Of a stretch of DNA of 27,657 nucleotides, positions 17,792 through 27,657 are shown in pieces (positions within the stretch are counted from its first letter, which is position 1; each line of letters opens with the position of its first letter). The stretch comes from a virus. Its lineage: Duplodnaviria; Heunggongvirae; Uroviricota; Caudoviricetes. Both the position numbers and the translations under genes were made by a program. Location: the IMG/VR virus record IMGVR_UViG_2703718778_000008. One strand, given 5' to 3'. The notes beneath the pieces are model-generated. The model saw only the letters and a program-made list of their open reading frames with translations. It ran no database searches and was not told where the DNA came from.

Positions 17792-18589
17792 TCAGTTTGT
17801 TTTGCGCGCGGCTTTTTTCTGGCTGGCAGCGCTTTTCTTTTTTGCGCTGCTCTTTTTCCCGCCGGTGGTGGTTTTCCTGCCCGTTGTGGATGCAGGCACC
17901 ACCTGATTTCCGTCTGCCAGTTTCCTGACCGCGCGCTCCAGCGTGGCAATTTCACGCTTCACTCCCGAAGCCGGATTGATCCGCATGGCTTCACGTAACA
18001 GGCTCAGCGACAGACGCAGATCATCGGGAGAGGAGGAGGCGCGGCGGGAAAATGCGCGTGCCTTGTGCAGTTTTGACCTGACCTGGTCCGGCATATCCTG
18101 CTCACTGACCAGGTGGTTCAGCTCATCAAGCATGGCGGTGTACACAGACAAATCCGCCTCGCTGTCCGTTGTGGCCTGCGTCAGAACGGCGTCAGTAATC
18201 TCTTCAGCCAGTACCGTGGCGGCGTCACGGCCAAAGTTATCCGGCAGCGCCAGACCATGGCGGATCACGTACTCCCCGATACGCAGTGCCAGCGGGTAGT
18301 CACGGCAGTCAATGGCCCACACCATCATGGTGGTGATGACCTCATCCTGGCGTCCGCTGTCTCCAGCCAGGGTGCCTTCAATCCACCCTTCAAAGTCAGG
18401 CAACAGATGTTTTTTAAGCTCTGCCCTGGCGACGTTTGACTGAATACCCTTCAGCTGCATCTGTGCCAGCCTTAACTGGTGAAGGACCTGTTCATGTGCG
18501 GTTCTTTCCCGTTGTGTTTCCCGGGCGTTCATGGTCACCCGGTTGCGGGCCACCGCCTGTTGCACATAGCGTTGTGCCGGTGTCAGCAT
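17792..18589 (-). CDS. M: Terminase endonuclease (small) subunit
   Basis: 265 aa ORF in the gpM position of the O-N-M-L head operon, with a Lys/Ser-rich basic C-terminal tail. Confidence 0.8.
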   Translation of the reverse strand: MLTPAQRYVQQAVARNRVTMNARETQRERTAHEQVLHQLRLAQMQLKGIQSNVARAELKKHLLPDFEGWIEGTLAGDSGRQDEVITTMMVWAIDCRDYPLALRIGEYVIRHGLALPDNFGRDAATVLAEEITDAVLTQATTDSEADLSVYTAMLDELNHLVSEQDMPDQVRSKLHKARAFSRRASSSPDDLRLSLSLLREAMRINPASGVKREIATLERAVRKLADGNQVVPASTTGRKTTTGGKKSSAKKKSAASQKKAARKTN

Positions 18590-20584: not shown

Positions 20585-20739
20585 GGAAATTCTCCATAAC
20601 CTGGTCGTTTTTCCCATGATGGCGGCAGATAACGGTGTGTCTCAAGGTGCTTAAGTTGTATGGCGACGGGGACAACGCGGGCTGGTATCAGGCGGTATTG
20701 CTGAGGCTTAATCTTGCCCTGTTAATGTCAGGGGGTGCA
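20585..20739. promoter_or_regulatory. Divergent late promoter region between O and P (expected PO / PP, Ogr-dependent)
   Basis: Non-coding gap between divergent head and terminase operons; contains a partial dyad TGT-N13-ACA (about 20657-20675). Confidence 0.45.
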
Positions 20740-22473
20740 ATGATCCAGGATGTCTTTATTCGTATGCGGGCGAAACAGCTTTACTGGCAGGGGTATACCC
20801 CGGCGGATATCGCTCAGCTGATGGGAATAAACCAGAACACGATTTATTCGTGGAAAAAACGCGATGAGTGGGATGCCACTCCCCCGATCCAGCGGGTCAC
20901 CCAGTCCATTGATGCACGCCTGATACAGCTCACCGCCAAACCGGATAAAAGCGGCGGTGACTTTAAGGAAATTGACCTGCTGACGCGCCAGCTGAAAAAA
21001 CTGAATGACGGTCAGGGAGAACAGGCTGTTTCCGGTAAGAAGCCCCGCAGGCGCAAACTGAAAAATCACTTCACCGAAGAGCAGATTGTCGCTCTCAGGG
21101 AAAAAATCCTGCCGTCACTGGCCTGGCATCAGCGCGAATGGTACGACAACCGCCATCACCGCAACCGCATGATCCTGAAGTCGCGTCAGATTGGTGCGAC
21201 CTGGTATTTTGCGCGCGAAGCACTCCTTGATGCACTGCGTGATGATGTCTCCGCCGGGTACCAGCGCAACCAGATATTTTTGTCCGCATCCCGTCGCCAG
21301 GCGTATCAGTTCAAACACTTTATTCAGCAGGCGGCGCTGGAAGTTGATGTCGAACTGAAAGGGGGTGACAAGATTGTTTTGTCTAACGGTGCAGAGCTTC
21401 ACTTCCTTGGCACATCGGCAGCAACCGCTCAGTCGTATACCGGACACCTTAAATTTGATGAATTTTTCTGGGTCAGTAATTTTGTGCAGTTGCGAAAGGT
21501 GGCTGGCGCAATGGCAACCCTGAAAGGCCTTACCCGTACCTACTTTTCAACGCCATCGGGTGAAACGCATGAAGCTTATCAGTTCTGGACGGGGGATCGC
21601 TGGAACAGTGAGCGTCCCCGCTCAAAACGCACTGAATTCGATGTGTCTCATTCGAACCTGAAAGGGGGCGTGCTCTTCCCGGATAAAACATGGCGGCAGA
21701 TTGTCACCATTGAGGATGCAGTCGCGAACGGGTGGGAATATACGAGCATTGACGATATCCGGGATGAAAACACCGAAAGCGAATTTCGTAACCTGTACAT
21801 GTGCGAGTTCGTGCGTGATGGCGAGGCGGCGTTCAGTCTGAATGCGCTGATCGGCTGTGGTGTGGATGGATACGACGAATGGCCTGACTGGAAACCTTTT
21901 GCTGCGCGTCCGATGGGCGTGCGGGAAGTCTGGCTCGGGTACGACGCCAACGGCAGCAGCGGGAAGGGGGACTGCGGGGCGCTGTCGGTCTGCGTACCTC
22001 CACGGGTTACAGGCGGTCGTTTTCGTACCGTGGAGACGGTCAGGGTGCAGGGTATGGAGTTTGAACAGCAGGCGGCCCTGATTGAGGAATACACCCAAAA
22101 ATATAACGTGAAACATATCGGCATTGATGTGACCGGCGGGAACGGGGAGGGGGTTTATCAGATTGTGAAAAAGTTTTTCCCGATGGCCGTACCGTACAAC
22201 TTCAATATCGCCTCCAAGCGGGCACTGGTCATGAAAATGCTTCAGGTGGTGCGTGCCGGACGCTGGGAGTATGACCGCAGTGAACGTGACCTGATCCAGG
22301 CATTCGCATCGGTGCGAAAAATACAGACACCCGGCGGCTATATCACCTATGACACCGACCGCTCCCGCGGTGTGAGTCATGGGGATCTTGCCTGGGCAAC
22401 CATGCTTGCTGTTATCAATGAGCCAATTGGTGCGGAGCGTGAGGATAATCGCGGCTTTGCAATGGAGTTCTGA
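20740..22473 (+). CDS. P: Terminase ATPase (large) subunit
   Basis: About 577 aa matching P2 gpP in position and size. Start at ATG 20740 (GGGGGT upstream); ATG 20725 is an alternative. Confidence 0.85.
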   Translation: MIQDVFIRMRAKQLYWQGYTPADIAQLMGINQNTIYSWKKRDEWDATPPIQRVTQSIDARLIQLTAKPDKSGGDFKEIDLLTRQLKKLNDGQGEQAVSGKKPRRRKLKNHFTEEQIVALREKILPSLAWHQREWYDNRHHRNRMILKSRQIGATWYFAREALLDALRDDVSAGYQRNQIFLSASRRQAYQFKHFIQQAALEVDVELKGGDKIVLSNGAELHFLGTSAATAQSYTGHLKFDEFFWVSNFVQLRKVAGAMATLKGLTRTYFSTPSGETHEAYQFWTGDRWNSERPRSKRTEFDVSHSNLKGGVLFPDKTWRQIVTIEDAVANGWEYTSIDDIRDENTESEFRNLYMCEFVRDGEAAFSLNALIGCGVDGYDEWPDWKPFAARPMGVREVWLGYDANGSSGKGDCGALSVCVPPRVTGGRFRTVETVRVQGMEFEQQAALIEEYTQKYNVKHIGIDVTGGNGEGVYQIVKKFFPMAVPYNFNIASKRALVMKMLQVVRAGRWEYDRSERDLIQAFASVRKIQTPGGYITYDTDRSRGVSHGDLAWATMLAVINEPIGAEREDNRGFAMEF

Positions 22474-22478
22474 ACACA

Positions 22479-23522
22479 ATGAGTAAACGCAAAAAATACA
22501 CCGGAAAGCGGGGGCAGGATTCGCTACACGATGCACTGAAATCAACGCCTGCACTCAGCGCATTCACCTTTGATGGGCCCTATGAAGTCAGCCGCATGGA
22601 TCTCCTGGATAACATGTCATGTGCAGATAACGGGCGCTACTTTGATACCCCCATGGACTGGAACGCTATCGCCCGTGCATCCCGTCGTGCGTCCTGGCAT
22701 CAGTCGGCTTTGTACTTCAAGCGCAACGCCCTGAACGGGTGCTTTGTTCCTCACCCTCTGCTGTCCCGCCAGGCGTTTTCAGCCTTTGCGCTCGACTGGT
22801 TTGTGTTTGGTAATGCCTATCTTGAAGTGCGGCGTAACAGGCTGGGGGAACCACTCCTGCTTCGCCCGGCACTGGCAAAATATACACGCAGGGGAAGTGA
22901 CCTGGATACCTACTGGTATCTCAACGACGACGGTACGGAGTTCAGTTTCAGGAAAGGGACTGTGTGCCACGTGCTTAATCCTGATATTAATCAGGAGATC
23001 TACGGGATGCCGGAATATATCGGCGGGTTGCTGTCTGTCAGCCTGTCAAACTCAGCGGATACATTCCGCAAGCTCTACTACGATAACGGCTCGCATGCCG
23101 GGTGTATTATCTATGTAGGCACACCTCAGGCGAATGCGGAAAGTGTCGAGGCCATTAAAAAAACGCTTACGGATTCCCGTGGTCGCGGGGCGTTTAAAAA
23201 CCTGTTTCTTCATGCGCCGGGTGGTGGCAAGGATGGTGTGCAAATACTGCCGTTCCAGCAGATAACCGCAAAGGATGAATTCCTGAACATCAAGGGGAGC
23301 GCCCGCGACGATATCCTTGCTGCCCATCGTGTACCACCTCAACTGATGGGGGCAATGCCTGACGGGAATGCGGCGTTTGGTGACGTTGAGAAAGCGGCGA
23401 GGGTGTTTTTCATCAACGAGTTGCAACCTGTCATGGAGGCCATGAAGCATGTCAATGAATGGCTTGGCGTTGAGGTGATGCGCTTTAACCCCTATGCCCT
23501 GCTTCTGGATAACGCCAGCTGA
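22479..23522 (+). CDS. Q: Portal protein
   Basis: 347 aa directly downstream of P; sequence reminiscent of P2 gpQ. Confidence 0.9.
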   Translation: MSKRKKYTGKRGQDSLHDALKSTPALSAFTFDGPYEVSRMDLLDNMSCADNGRYFDTPMDWNAIARASRRASWHQSALYFKRNALNGCFVPHPLLSRQAFSAFALDWFVFGNAYLEVRRNRLGEPLLLRPALAKYTRRGSDLDTYWYLNDDGTEFSFRKGTVCHVLNPDINQEIYGMPEYIGGLLSVSLSNSADTFRKLYYDNGSHAGCIIYVGTPQANAESVEAIKKTLTDSRGRGAFKNLFLHAPGGGKDGVQILPFQQITAKDEFLNIKGSARDDILAAHRVPPQLMGAMPDGNAAFGDVEKAARVFFINELQPVMEAMKHVNEWLGVEVMRFNPYALLLDNAS

Positions 23523-23587: not shown

Positions 23588-24091
23588 TTAACGGAATGCG
23601 GATGGCGTTCTTCTTTGCAGCTTGCTGATAATATGCATCTTCATACTGTTTACTATCGGCAGCCATTCCCTGTCACCGTCTCCGTTGATGACCACGCGAA
23701 TGGAGGTATCATCTTCCACGCGAACCCGAAGAGATACACCGTCTTTTCCGACGGAATGTAACTCCATTGCCAGGACTATGTTTACCGACTCTCCTTCATC
23801 GTGTGAGTCAACCCATGTTCTTACAGCCATCCGGAATATGTTATCTGTGTCGGTTGCAATCATATTTACCGGAAATGGCCTGAAGTCCCGATCGTTTCTG
23901 CACGGAAACCCCGTATCAACGTAACGATGATGCTCGCCGTCTTTGTCTTCCCATGTCTCTGAAGGCAATTCCAGCCACTGCTCATAAAAAGCAACCAGCT
24001 TTTCAGCCTGATTGCGCAGAATCCCTGTAACCTCCCGCCTCGCGTCCCGGCTCTTTTTGTTTGCCAGGTACAAATCGCGAAAATGGCTCAT
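23588..24091 (-). CDS. Hypothetical protein (167 aa), accessory hotspot gene
   Basis: Strong RBS (AAGGAG 6 nt upstream of ATG 24091). Acidic, no transmembrane segment, no motif I can assign. Confidence 0.6.
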   Translation of the reverse strand: MSHFRDLYLANKKSRDARREVTGILRNQAEKLVAFYEQWLELPSETWEDKDGEHHRYVDTGFPCRNDRDFRPFPVNMIATDTDNIFRMAVRTWVDSHDEGESVNIVLAMELHSVGKDGVSLRVRVEDDTSIRVVINGDGDREWLPIVNSMKMHIISKLQRRTPSAFR

Positions 24092-24711
24092 GTCGCTCTC
24101 CTTTGGTCTGTTTATGCCAGCCTGTATTCTGCGCTCACCTCATATTGTGCGCAAGTTTTCACCCGTGAATGACTGATACTTTAAATTCTATTAACTTTAT
24201 GATTTCAGTGATTTTTGTCTCTCTTTTTTATCCCGTTCGTCACGTCCGTTTCCCTCCCGATCTCCGACCTCGCCAGACGCAATCAGACGCATTCTGACGG
24301 CCTGTTTCCCTGACCATGTTTTGATGTGGTTTTTCAAAACTGGCTTCACTGCGCGCGTATCACGCGCAATACGACCCCAAATAAAGCAACCTGCCTTCCA
24401 CCCCTCAATTCGGGCGCCCTTCCCTCGTCGCCTGCGCGCTGCAATTGCCTCGTTTTTCGTGCACCGTGCAAAGTGGCTTCAGCCCGCGCCGTTACTGGGC
24501 TGAGTGGGGATGAAACACATAAGAAAAATTGTGCAATTTCGTGCACTTTTGTGCAGTTTGAAACGGGTATCTGTTTGACACTGGTACTTACTTTGCGCTA
24601 ACTTTACTCGACCAGAAATTTCAATGAATCGGATGAGGTTGTTTGTCATACGACCTCGGTTAGCTAGGTTGCCTTAATCAAAAGGCATGTTTGATACTGG
24701 AGGAGGTTAAT

Positions 24712-24747
24712 ATGAATAAAGCATTTGACGAATTTGATGGATTCTGA
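24712..24747 (+). CDS. Candidate leader peptide (11 aa, MNKAFDEFDGF)
   Basis: Near-perfect RBS GGAGGAGG (24699-24706) 5 nt before the ATG; followed 20 nt later by an intrinsic terminator. Confidence 0.3.
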   Translation: MNKAFDEFDGF

Positions 24748-24766
24748 ATGTGTTAACCTCGATAAG

Positions 24767-24795
24767 GCGGAGACTGATCTCCGCCTTTTTTATTG
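24767..24795 (+). terminator. Intrinsic terminator / candidate attenuator immediately upstream of the hotspot gene at 24806
   Basis: GGCGGAG (24767-24773) / CTCCGCC (24780-24786), loop ACTGAT, followed by TTTTTTATT. Confidence 0.65.
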
Positions 24796-24805
24796 GTAAA
24801 GAAAT

Positions 24806-25309
24806 ATGGCTATGGACTCAGTAACGATACAAATCATTAGCAATATGATAGTCCTGTTTGGTGTCATTGTTGCTATCTGTACAATTATCTATAACGTTCG
24901 TACGGCAAAAAAAACACAAACCGCTAATTTTTTATTTGAAAGTCGCCAGGATAAGGAATACCTGGAATCATTACATCTCCTCAGGAGAATTCATCGCTCA
25001 GGGAAATCGTTTCGTGCTTATGTTTTTCCTTGTGAAGGCGGGGCTATTACGGAAGAGGAGATGACCGAACGTCGCAAGTTTCAGTACATTCTTAACTTTT
25101 ACGAGAGAGTTGCAGTTAGTATCCGTGAAGGTATTTATGATGAAAGGATGATCAAACGAACGTCCTTTACAACGATTATTACAACTTATGATATTGCAGA
25201 ACCCCTGATTAAGGCTATCAGAGAAGATACTCAATCAAAAACAGCGTACCAGGAGTTTGAATGGCTGGTAAAACGATGGAAAGCTCGTCCTCTTGATAGG
25301 GATGTGTAG
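24806..25309 (+). CDS. Hypothetical membrane-anchored protein (167 aa), AT-rich accessory hotspot gene
   Basis: Markedly lower GC by eye than surrounding phage genes. N-terminal hydrophobic helix IQIISNMIVLFGVIVAICTIIY followed by a charged soluble domain; no recognisable catalytic motif. Confidence 0.6.
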   Translation: MAMDSVTIQIISNMIVLFGVIVAICTIIYNVRTAKKTQTANFLFESRQDKEYLESLHLLRRIHRSGKSFRAYVFPCEGGAITEEEMTERRKFQYILNFYERVAVSIREGIYDERMIKRTSFTTIITTYDIAEPLIKAIREDTQSKTAYQEFEWLVKRWKARPLDRDV

Positions 25310-25706: not shown

Positions 25707-26045
25707 TTAGATGGCTGGCAGATCTCCGCCAGCGCCGTAGATAAACAGAATTCGCTTCATGATTTCGCTGCGCTTACAGGCTTCGATGACTGATTTTTCC
25801 TGTTGCCATTCTGCCCGTTGCGCCAGCTCCAGTCGTTCCTTTTCCGTTAGCTTCCGGTAATGCGTTATCTTGTCCGTGTACCCGTCCACAACCAGCAGCC
25901 CTTCGCGTACCATCTTCCCGGCGGCCTGATTAATGATGGTCCTTTTCACGCCCAGTTTTTCAACCAGCTCTGGTGCGCTGAAGCGTGCGTGCGTTTCCAG
26001 GTAGCGTAAAATGATTACCTTTCCGGTCATTCTGGGTGTCTTCAT
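25707..26045 (-). CDS. Putative winged-helix DNA-binding protein (about 112 aa)
   Basis: ...ILRYLETHARFSAPELVEKLGVKRTIINQAAGKMVREGLLVV... looks like a wHTH. Start set at the internal ATG that overlaps the upstream stop (ATGA). Confidence 0.4.
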   Translation of the reverse strand: MKTPRMTGKVIILRYLETHARFSAPELVEKLGVKRTIINQAAGKMVREGLLVVDGYTDKITHYRKLTEKERLELAQRAEWQQEKSVIEACKRSEIMKRILFIYGAGGDLPAI

Positions 26046-26212
26046 TTGGCGGCTCCTTCGTTGTTCCGGCGTTCGCGGAGTTCGGTCAGTGCTGCCAGTA
26101 AATTTTCCCACCATGTTTCTTCCACAACCGGATTTCGTCGTGAAAGCAGCTGCTGCGCCGACTCAATCATTTTCGTAAGCTCTTTGTCGCTGATCCTCCT
26201 GATGTCGTTCAT
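26042..26212 (-). CDS. Small hypothetical protein (56 aa)
   Basis: Internal ATG preceded by AAGGAG 7 nt upstream: MNDIRRISDKELTKMIESAQQLL... Confidence 0.4.
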   Translation of the reverse strand: MNDIRRISDKELTKMIESAQQLLSRRNPVVEETWWENLLAALTELRERRNNEGAAK

Positions 26213-26260: not shown

Positions 26261-26665
26261 TTACCTGCGTGATTGCCTGCTGGCGGCCGAATGCACATAG
26301 CGGACAATTGCCGCTTTTCGGTTAACGACGGCCAGCGTTCTTGCCAGTTCTTCGTTGAGTTTTCTGGTCTGTTTTTCGTGGTATGCCTGCATGATTTTTC
26401 CTACGGGAGTCAGTGGTTCAGGCTCTGATATGGCGCGACGAGGGCGCACGGCAACGATGAATGCGCTTCTGTCGGTGTTGATTCTTGCAGTCAGGATGTC
26501 GGTCATAACGGTGTCTGTGCTGCGATCGGGACTGGCGATCGTGATTTCCAGTTCGTCGCCTGGCTGCGGTCGAACACTGACGCCGCTCAGTGTCAGTGCC
26601 GGAATGCGTGCGTTCATGATGGTGCTGAAATCATGGCGCTGGAGTACGCAATGGAATCGTGTCAT
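26261..26665 (-). CDS. Hypothetical protein (134 aa) translationally coupled to gene A
   Basis: ATG overlaps the stop of A (ATGA) with GGAGG upstream; no motif recognised. Occupies the position of P2 orf91. Confidence 0.5.
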   Translation of the reverse strand: MTRFHCVLQRHDFSTIMNARIPALTLSGVSVRPQPGDELEITIASPDRSTDTVMTDILTARINTDRSAFIVAVRPRRAISEPEPLTPVGKIMQAYHEKQTRKLNEELARTLAVVNRKAAIVRYVHSAASRQSRR

Positions 26666-27657
26666 GGGTTAACCTCCGGTTGATCTGCTGCCACCAGGCT
26701 TCGTGATTTTTCATCCCAGTGCACAATCCGCCCGTCAGGCAGGCGAACGCGTGCACCTCTGTGTACGGAAAGTGCTGCGCCACTGTGTAGCTCCTCGCCC
26801 GTCGTGCTCAGTGCCGACTTGATTACGGTGGTGGTGACGTCAGTCAGCGGCAATGCTGTACGCACATGTATGACGTCATCGGGCGTGGTGGGGCCGCCGG
26901 TTTTCACGGTTTTTGTGTCAGATGGCGCATCTTTCAGCTGCCTGGTGAGTTGTTTTCTCTCTGTGGGGGTCAGTGACCTTAACCATTCGCTCAAATCACC
27001 TTCCGGGATGGTCAGTTTTTGTTCTTTCCTGGTTTCCGGTGGTGGGGTTTTACCCTCTCCGGTGTCTGTTTTTTCATCATGGGGACAGTTATTGCCACGA
27101 GTCCAAGGTGCGGCGAAGCCGCCCCCAACGTCAAAATCCTCGTCCGTGCTGTTGTCGGCTTTCGCTTCTTTTCTGACCAGTTTCCACTCGTCCGGATGGG
27201 TGCAGATGGTGTAGCGCTCGCCGAGCGACGGGGCACAAATTCCGTAGATGCGCTGCGGGAATTCGCCGTAGTCGTTGGCCTCATCTGCGGTTTCGTATGC
27301 GGTGCGGATCAGGTACAGGTTGCGCGGAATGAGCACGCCGCCCTGACGGTTGATGTAGGTGGCAAAACACCCCACGTCAGCGGCGGCCAGAATGGCGTCA
27401 ATATGGTCATGGTCCAGGCGCTTCGGTGATGCGGGGTTACGCTCCATTTGTCCGGCAAGGCGGCGGAGTTCACGCCATACCTGGCGGGGCGGGATACCGA
27501 AGAACTGGAACTGCCGGATGCGGTGGAGACTCGCCCAGGCAATGGCGTTTTCCACGGTTTCCGCCATGGTTTTTCCCGCTTCTTTATCGGCGTAAGGTTT
27601 GCCGGTTTTCGGGTCATTGTCGTGAAAGGTGCTGGCGTCCAGGTTCTTGCCAATATA
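26662..27657 (-). CDS. A: Replication initiation protein A (rolling-circle endonuclease), 3' portion only; 5' end lies beyond the window
   Basis: The minus-strand frame is open from the window edge (no stop in 27568-27657) and continues through the track ORF 26662-27567. Assignment rests mainly on synteny and size; no HUH or tyrosine motif falls in this part. Confidence 0.55.
   Translation of the reverse strand, partial: YIGKNLDASTFHDNDPKTGKPYADKEAGKTMAETVENAIAWASLHRIRQFQFFGIPPRQVWRELRRLAGQMERNPASPKRLDHDHIDAILAAADVGCFATYINRQGGVLIPRNLYLIRTAYETADEANDYGEFPQRIYGICAPSLGERYTICTHPDEWKLVRKEAKADNSTDEDFDVGGGFAAPWTRGNNCPHDEKTDTGEGKTPPPETRKEQKLTIPEGDLSEWLRSLTPTERKQLTRQLKDAPSDTKTVKTGGPTTPDDVIHVRTALPLTDVTTTVIKSALSTTGEELHSGAALSVHRGARVRLPDGRIVHWDEKSRSLVAADQPEVNP

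Follow-up and report, generated by a model that had tools for sequence, protein, structure and literature searches.

The window, by which the whole analysed stretch of 27,657 nucleotides is meant, is a P88/P2-like prophage of the Xuanwuvirus type (Peduoviridae). Along this 27.6-kb stretch the large terminase gene is followed by the portal gene, a cos module (~24260-24559), a variable hotspot, and the gpA replication gene (Table 1). The layout, with the cos region flanked by the portal gene and the gpA part, is shared with the related loci L004-L006 and with P2, and the interval from the portal gene to gpA corresponds to the defence hotspot next to cos that has been described for P2-like phages (Rousset et al., PMC9122126). 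In a megablast search against the phage collection the portal end is 100% identical to P88-like phages, and this end alone was matched. The large terminase subunit carries an N-terminal HTH of its own (Terminase_5/HTH_23; residues 41-98, window positions 20755-20928), and therefore the recognition of the cos sequence need not rest on the small subunit alone. Sequence searches of the PDB with gpM and the large terminase returned no relatives. The 167-residue open reading frame between the portal gene and cos did not match anything in Pfam and PADLOC. It is missing in the relative L005, where the gap between portal and cos is only about 180 nt, and its site is a second, left-side cargo position comparable to that of ctx in phiCTX. 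A scan of the whole window against Rfam matched no family, so that no known RNA accounts for the region.

Table 1. Coordinates of the genes and sequence features of the cos region and its surroundings in the window.
Feature	Position	Strand	Basis or remark
Small terminase subunit, gpM homologue	17792-18589	-	Pfam PF05944 (7e-41); phrog_74
Large terminase subunit, gpP homologue	20635-22473	+	Pfam Terminase_5, HTH_23, Terminase_6N, Terminase_6C
Portal protein, gpQ homologue; left landmark of the cos region	22479-23522	+	Pfam Phage_portal
167-aa ORF of unknown function between portal gene and cos	23588-24091	-	phrog_5091
Conserved cos module: left arm, predicted cohesive-end sequence, right arm	24260-24559	+	megablast against E. 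coli
Tandem CAGACGCAAT/CAGACGCATT near the left edge of the cos module	24274-24293	+	probably not a functional repeat
Predicted cohesive-end sequence (cosN) GCGCCCTTCCCTCGTCGCC	24414-24432	+	best 19-mer match and intermediates
Proximal site	24453-24471	+	T-run 24453-24457, GTGCA(C) 24459-24464, second GTGCA 24466-24470
Spacer, 67 bp (72 bp start to start)	24464-24530	+	dyad; A-tract 24524-24528 directly ahead of the triple repeat
Distal triple repeat TTGTGCAATT / TCGTGCACTT / TTGTGCAGTT	24529-24558	+	cores 24531-35, 24541-45, 24551-55
Hotspot cargo module, outside cos	24560-25309	+	76.5% identical to the module of Citrobacter phage Shae_phiSM
Promoter-like element	24575-24604	+	TTGACA (24575-80)-N18-TAACTT (24599-604)
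Strong intrinsic terminator	24764-24787		just upstream of the DUF4760 gene
DUF4760 gene	24806-25309	+	
SSB, MarR-like wHTH protein (25707-26114), two unknown ORFs	right of the DUF4760 gene	-	
gpA replication nickase, C-terminal part	26662-27567	-	

The feature under study is an array of short direct repeats at the right end of the cos module. An earlier note, made from the letters of the window, had reported three consecutive 10-bp units, TGTGCAATTT / CGTGCACTTT / TGTGCAGTTT, at 24530-24559, and both sequence and positions are exactly as described there. The units can be written as TTGTGCA with a period of 10 bp. The triple repeat is not due to chance: GTGCA-N5-GTGCA-N5-GTGCA is present a single time in the window, and 100 shuffles that preserved the dinucleotides did not produce it at all. 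The upstream pair CGTGCAC-CGTGCAA of the same note also exists but is located at 24458-24464 and 24465-24471 and not at 24468-24481, which means that it sits 10 nt left of the coordinates first given. It belongs to the proximal site, whose T-run plus GTGCA sequence TTTTTCGTGCA (24453-24463) is found 26 nt from the predicted cohesive end. All repeats lie to the right of this end and in direct orientation, one (plus one) proximal and three distal, and their description as a phased array resembling protein-binding sites is supported. The tandem at the left edge of the module is likewise present, but the significance given to it is not supported: a single pair of adjacent 10-mers with at least 9 of 10 identical positions was observed, compared to 0.73 +/- 0.89 in shuffles, and the relative L005 contains one copy only. 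The CAGACGCA tandem was therefore rejected as a functional repeat because of its chance-level frequency and missing conservation. A GC(G/A)CATTCTG(G/A)CGG-type element recurs in several lineages (at 24290-24300 in the window, also in phiT5282H and L048) close to the left edge of the conserved module, where some 115-125 nt separate it from the predicted cohesive end.

The borders of the module become visible in comparison with related prophages. Megablast against 5,426 complete E. coli genomes matched 29 of them, and in 26 of these 29 the match stops at 24559, where the third repeat unit ends as well; two of the other three run through to the end of the query and one stops earlier. The starts are at 24242 or 24260 for 17 matches and at 24031 for two. 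Both flanks of the module differ among L004, L005, and L006. Beyond 24559, L004 and L005 encode another ORF, and L006 encodes a TumE-type toxin-antitoxin pair that is transcribed toward the repeats. Because the homology of the relatives stops at 24559 with unrelated cargo beyond, the repeats are part of the ~24260-24559 module and do not belong to the cargo. The earlier note had raised the question whether the repeats might be absent from closely related prophages, and the comparison showed that they are present in them. In the conservation profile the information per column is high at the T-run plus GTGCA, at the A-run plus TTGTGCAA, and at the second and third units, although part of this motif conservation is imposed by the anchoring rule. 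The third repeat together with the flanking TT and the A-run are outside this rule and are nevertheless conserved, and directly past the third core the information drops to about 0.1 bit. Among 78 loci the pairwise identity is 0.60 in the module and 0.28 in the 40 nt after the third repeat, a drop to the random level, and 56 kinds of downstream flank were counted in this set. No bases are spare in P2, where the third repeat and the -35 element of the old promoter overlap. The array ends exactly where the variable defence-gene hotspot starts (24560). In one locus (L054, 5250-5720) a second, degenerate cos-like module is located 244 nt downstream of the intact one, which has kept the cohesive-end motif, the T-run, and GTGCA while its distal repeats have decayed. 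It looks like the relic of a recombination between two phages at cos.

The cargo beyond the array has several features of its own. The promoter-like element is kept in all DUF4760 cargo modules examined in the form TTGAC(A/T/C)-N17/18-TA(A/G)(C/T)TT, whereas the copy in the window is not called by a standard promoter scan. Between this element and the DUF4760 gene, in the region 24699-24787, an ORF of only 11 codons (24712-24747; MNKAFDEFDGF and stop) follows GGAGGAGG, which is a strong Shine-Dalgarno sequence. Its homologues in six other loci come in four versions (MKKVFDEFDGF, MRKMFDEFDGF, MTKRFDEFDGF, and MKKMYDEFDGF), and all versions keep (F/Y)DEFDGF through synonymous codon changes. This ORF could be a leader peptide or attenuator, or a micro-protein partner of DUF4760.

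The presence of cos in the region had also been suggested in the earlier note and is supported, as a predicted cos, while the position considered at that time (24250-24280) is not. That stretch matches the P2 19-mer at 11 of 19 positions. From the portal gene to 24900 no ungapped match is better than the one at 24414-24432, about 150 bp away, with 13 of 19 identical positions. The reverse complement of this predicted end reads GGCGACGAGGGAAGGGCGC, and its P2 counterpart GGCGAGGCGGGGAAAGCAC. It is followed by a conserved TGCGCGC and by the T-run plus GTGCA at +26, as in Shae_phiSM and phiT5282H. A direct local alignment of the P2 cos region with the window scores 28, which is not significant compared to shuffled sequences (19.5 +/- 2.6, maximum 32). 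The assignment thus rests on intermediates and on position. The loci L088, L047, L074, L067, L013, and L011 link the end in the window to that of P2 with 14-18 of 19 identical positions at most steps; one step requires an indel of 2 nt, which explains +26 in the window instead of +24. The phage collection contains no Xuanwuvirus record with termini at the predicted site, and the cos is therefore placed by homology only; the record LR595891 starts 85 nt away, within the spacer. With fair confidence, the homology puts the predicted cohesive-end sequence at 24414-24432, with +/-2 nt for the nicks.

Given this end, the repeats of the window can be compared to those of phages whose cohesive ends have been defined experimentally, namely P2, P4, 186, and PSP3. 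In P2, which has the order portal-cos-hotspot, the 19-nt cohesive end is followed by a small dyad, by TTTTAATGCAC 24 nt on, and by three ATGCA. Counted from the cohesive end, the RTGCA sites are found at +24, +96, and +106 in all four phages and the last one at +118 in P2, +119 in both P4 and 186, and +115 in PSP3. The TTTTAATGCA at +24 in P2, P4, 186, and PSP3 is the equivalent of the proximal site in the window, and the distance from the proximal core (24459) to the first distal core (24531) is 72 bp as in these four. The same arrangement, with TTGTGCA units, is present in Citrobacter phage Shae_phiSM, Enterobacter phage phiT5282H, and P88_4B11; in a distant-mode search of the phage collection, Shae_phiSM was matched by the cargo module and phiT5282H by the cos arm.

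A broader sample was obtained from IMG/VR, from which 80 loci were retrieved together with a portal alignment. The strict four-site pattern is present in 47 of these 80 portal-anchored loci, always downstream of the portal gene and on the same strand, and none of the 80 has it on the opposite strand. The third repeat is often degenerate (TTGCA, GCGCA). If this third site is relaxed, 58 IMG/VR loci can be scored, and the spacing is 72 bp in 54, 71 bp in three, and 70 bp in one of them. Most of the remaining loci are truncated or have a degenerate site, and a few lineages (L070, L071, and L075-L077) do not show a clear array. Because the portal-anchored tests used the motif itself as anchor, the loci were re-anchored on the cohesive-end motif alone. 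In the resulting 57 representatives RTGCA is found at +24 to +27 (49), +30/+33 (15), +96 to +99 (49), +106 to +109 (38), and +116 to +119 (27), and only six occurrences fall elsewhere within 230 nt. An independent set of 78 loci, fetched via the cohesive-end motif plus the proximal site, has RTGCA at +72 from the proximal site in 64 loci and at +71 in six, at +82 in 57, and at +92 in 53. In total, the 72-bp spacing is kept in most of about 160 related phage loci.

The arrangement is not restricted to complete phages. Satellites with a GTGCA-type cos were not found in IMG/VR: among 80 loci of this search Psu has no match, 74 contain the portal gene, and none with an adequate left flank is without it. 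Through Psu itself six P4-like satellite loci were retrieved, one of which is P4 (Psu 99% identical); the other five come from Enterobacter, Tatumella, Citrobacter, Kluyvera, and Photorhabdus, and their Psu proteins are 61-65% identical to that of P4. All six have a proximal ATGCA followed by further sites after 72, 10, and 13 (or 9) bp.

The sequence between the proximal and the distal sites behaves differently from the sites. The mean identity of the spacer is 0.40 among 22 representatives, with many pairs at 0.18-0.35, and its length is unchanged. A spacer that has diverged and is still fixed in length argues for selection on geometry. Near its middle the spacer contains a dyad (TCAGCCC, 24479-24485, and GGGCTGA, 24497-24503), whose arms vary by lineage (ACCGCGCC/GGCGCGGT in P4, GCCCCGCCAG/CTGGCGGGGC in L074). 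Its centre is found at +32 to +37 from the proximal site in the window, P4, 186, L047, L057, and L074. P2 lacks the dyad, which might serve as a further site for a protein or belong to the structure of cos.

Taken together, the three GTGCA repeats probably represent the distal end of the right arm of the prophage cos, a terminase-recognition arm similar to cosB. From the sequence comparisons we assign a probability of roughly two thirds (0.66) to this reading. The right arm would consist of the predicted end, 26 nt, the T-run with GTGCA(C) at 24459/24466, the 67-bp spacer, and the three TTGTGCA. By analogy to the R-sites of lambda cosB and gpNu1, the RTGCA sites might be bound by several DNA-binding domains of an oligomeric terminase, with gpM and/or the N-terminal HTH of the large subunit as candidate binders. 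The 72 bp, which correspond to about seven helical turns, and the 10-bp period would put the sites on roughly one face of the DNA, and bending, looping, or wrapping of the DNA could then position the nuclease on the cohesive-end sequence. If the array is indispensable, the repeated replacement of the hotspot cargo would have eroded everything up to the last repeat, and we propose that the hotspot starts at 24560 for this reason. The architecture of the sequence, its conservation, the fixed spacing, and the sharp boundary are direct observations. From these we infer that the array is needed for packaging, and it may act at initiation; the binding protein and the nick positions are likewise deduced.

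The earlier note had left open whether a regulator or a packaging protein binds the repeats, and the packaging protein is the better option. P4 can be packaged by both P2 and 186, and these helpers have different regulators. P4 and its helpers have only the cos or packaging signal in common (PMC9122126, PMC9594776). The retention of the array in P4-like satellites supports the terminase as its reader. According to the accessible parts of the literature (PMC3931495, PMC5694545, PMC9594776, citing Ziermann & Calendar 1990), the P2 family has a conserved cos core of 55 bp. Such a core would cover the cohesive end and the proximal site and not the distal repeats, and therefore the repeats may be stimulatory and not essential. 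Cosmids with longer cos flanks show better transduction (PMC9594776), which would fit a role of the distal repeats.

Several other explanations have to be considered. The array could be part of cos but act at the end of packaging, like a cosQ or termination element, if the DNA enters the head with the portal-gene side first. This would agree with the location of the array on only one side of the cohesive-end sequence, and the conserved left arm (24260-24413) could then be the true binding arm. However, multiple phased repeats beside the nicking site are the established hallmark of initiation sites, as exemplified by the R-sites of lambda cosB, and lambda cosQ is a single short element. A role in termination is therefore unlikely.

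It is quite improbable that the array serves as an attI-like recombination site or as a hotspot directing the exchange of cassettes. The very sharp junction across the 56 flanks and the second, decayed cos module of L054, which indicates that recombination does take place here, would be in accordance with such a site, and it has been speculated that cos ends stimulate recombination (Rousset et al., PMC9122126). However, no recombinase is associated with the array, selection for an essential cos arm would generate the sharp boundary without any site-specific mechanism, and the array is conserved even in the P4-like satellites, whose hotspot is found on the opposite side of the cohesive end (PMC9122126).

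The repeats could also be an operator, or an activator or UP-like element, of the hotspot promoter, with the MarR-like wHTH protein as an example of a binder. The promoter-like element, which starts 20 nt past the third repeat, is kept in the DUF4760 cargo module, and the old promoter of P2 overlaps the third repeat, as described above. Against this, no constant association with a promoter or spacing to it was found: the 56 downstream flanks come in either orientation and include terminators. The array is retained beside unrelated cargo, even if this is transcribed toward it (L006, L009) or ends with a terminator. In the P4-like satellites, which share only the packaging with P2 and 186, it is located between the 3' end of psu and cos, where a promoter is not expected. 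In addition, the distance of the array is fixed to cos and not to any promoter, and the candidate promoter of the window is missed by the standard scan. The regulator or wHTH protein offered as binder in the earlier note thus did not find support, and we regard the operator as very unlikely.

Slightly less likely still is an architectural or insulating element, by which a host nucleoid protein or small hairpins would shield cos from transcription. TGCA is palindromic, GTGCA-N5-GTGCAC scores terminator-like with hits at 24531-24546 on either strand, the array is preceded by an A-tract, and downstream of psu in P4 repeats two and three make up GCCATGCA...TGCATGGC, after which Ts follow. However, the stems comprise only 5 bp, and both the 10-bp phasing and the 72-bp distance to the fourth copy beside the cohesive end would be left unexplained. 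By inspection, the spacer contains neither an exact nor a convincing match to the IHF consensus WATCAANNNNTTR; the best candidates, CATCAAAAAAATTG-type sequences in the relatives and ACATAAGAAAAATTG in the window, are out of register with it.

Iterons of a replication origin or a centromere for plasmid partition (parC), suggested by the 10-bp phasing of the direct repeats and by par-like genes within 1-2 kb in Shae_phiSM and P88_4B11 (parM/parR-like in some P88-like phages), are the least probable explanation, because neither initiator nor ParR/ParM genes are found near the array in the window, P2, 186, and P4, the array is located downstream and not upstream of the par operon and tracks cos, and the replication origin of P2 lies within gene A. 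The parC, iteron, and wHTH-operator readings were rejected given that the array occurs in elements without those genes.

Cos sites with terminase-binding repeats are already known, and the one described here is the cos of a P2-like prophage. The distal triple repeat, the 72-bp spacing, and the coincidence with the hotspot border are not described in the accessible literature, to which the original cos paper of 1990 does not belong, and a search combining cosB, cosN, and P2-like did not find any paper. The architecture is neat and possibly undescribed so far. Beyond the window, we suggest only tentatively, and with more doubt than conviction, that the cos of the P2 family and of P4-like satellites might hold an undescribed bipartite terminase-recognition arm whose last repeat anchors the exchange of defence cargo. 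Equally tentatively, this arm would be composed of one (sometimes two) RTGCA near the cohesive end and three helically phased RTGCA exactly 72 bp off. If this were true, the '55-bp cos core' would be incomplete, and the geometry of cos in a wrapped or looped terminase complex would set the physical border of a major hotspot of antiviral genes.

For the window, the analysis settles on the repeat as part of a packaging signal and not as the operator of a regulator, and shifts the predicted cos by about 150 bp. It also provides a rule for locating cos and the start of the hotspot in P2-like prophages and P4-like satellites: a cohesive end, RTGCA at +24 to +26, 72 bp, and three RTGCA. For delivery vectors based on P2/P4 cosmids, it suggests that the sequence right of the cohesive end should be included over a length of about 125-130 bp. 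The strict 72-bp spacing leads to a specific and testable prediction on the geometry of the terminase-cos complex.

In general, the predicted cos of the window most closely corresponds to those of P2, 186, and P4, which have 19-nt 5' cohesive ends. It shares with them the location between the portal gene Q and the hotspot and gpA, the T-run plus RTGCA at a distance of 24-26 nt from the end, and the triple RTGCA that follows after 72 bp; its predicted GC-rich end sequence appears similar to theirs. In contrast, the core is GTGCA in the window and ATGCA in the others, and the third repeat follows at +10 instead of +9 to +13. Compared to P2, the end of the window, which is placed by homology, is identical at 13 of 19 positions and about 2 nt shorter by alignment. 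In phage lambda, cosB consists of the sites R3-I1-R2-R1, to which the small subunit gpNu1 binds and between which IHF induces a bend. The window resembles it in having repeats on one side of the nicking site, one near it and a group at some distance, separated by a spacer that could be bent. There is, however, no sequence similarity, the window has direct copies only, at a strict period of 10 bp and with a gap of 72 bp, the small terminase belongs to another family (PF05944), and the HTH of the large subunit sets the window apart. Iterons and operators have short direct repeats with a helical period in common with the array. The array differs from them in being without an initiator or regulator gene, an AT-rich unwinding element, or a fixed relation to a promoter, while its position is fixed to cos. 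The more distant P2-like phages HP1 and phiCTX also have short repeated motifs near cos and on the same side of it, but the sequences of these motifs differ. At its right genome end HP1 (L093) has ATTTTCCGTG three times, and phiCTX (L094) has TTTCTGCR with a T-run plus CTGCA about 23 nt from the end; in NC_003278 (phiCTX) the repeats R4-R6 are annotated across cos. Different motifs would be expected if the specificity of the terminases diverged, and the location of the repeats of HP1 and phiCTX on the same side of cos suggests that the architecture is older than the RTGCA motif.
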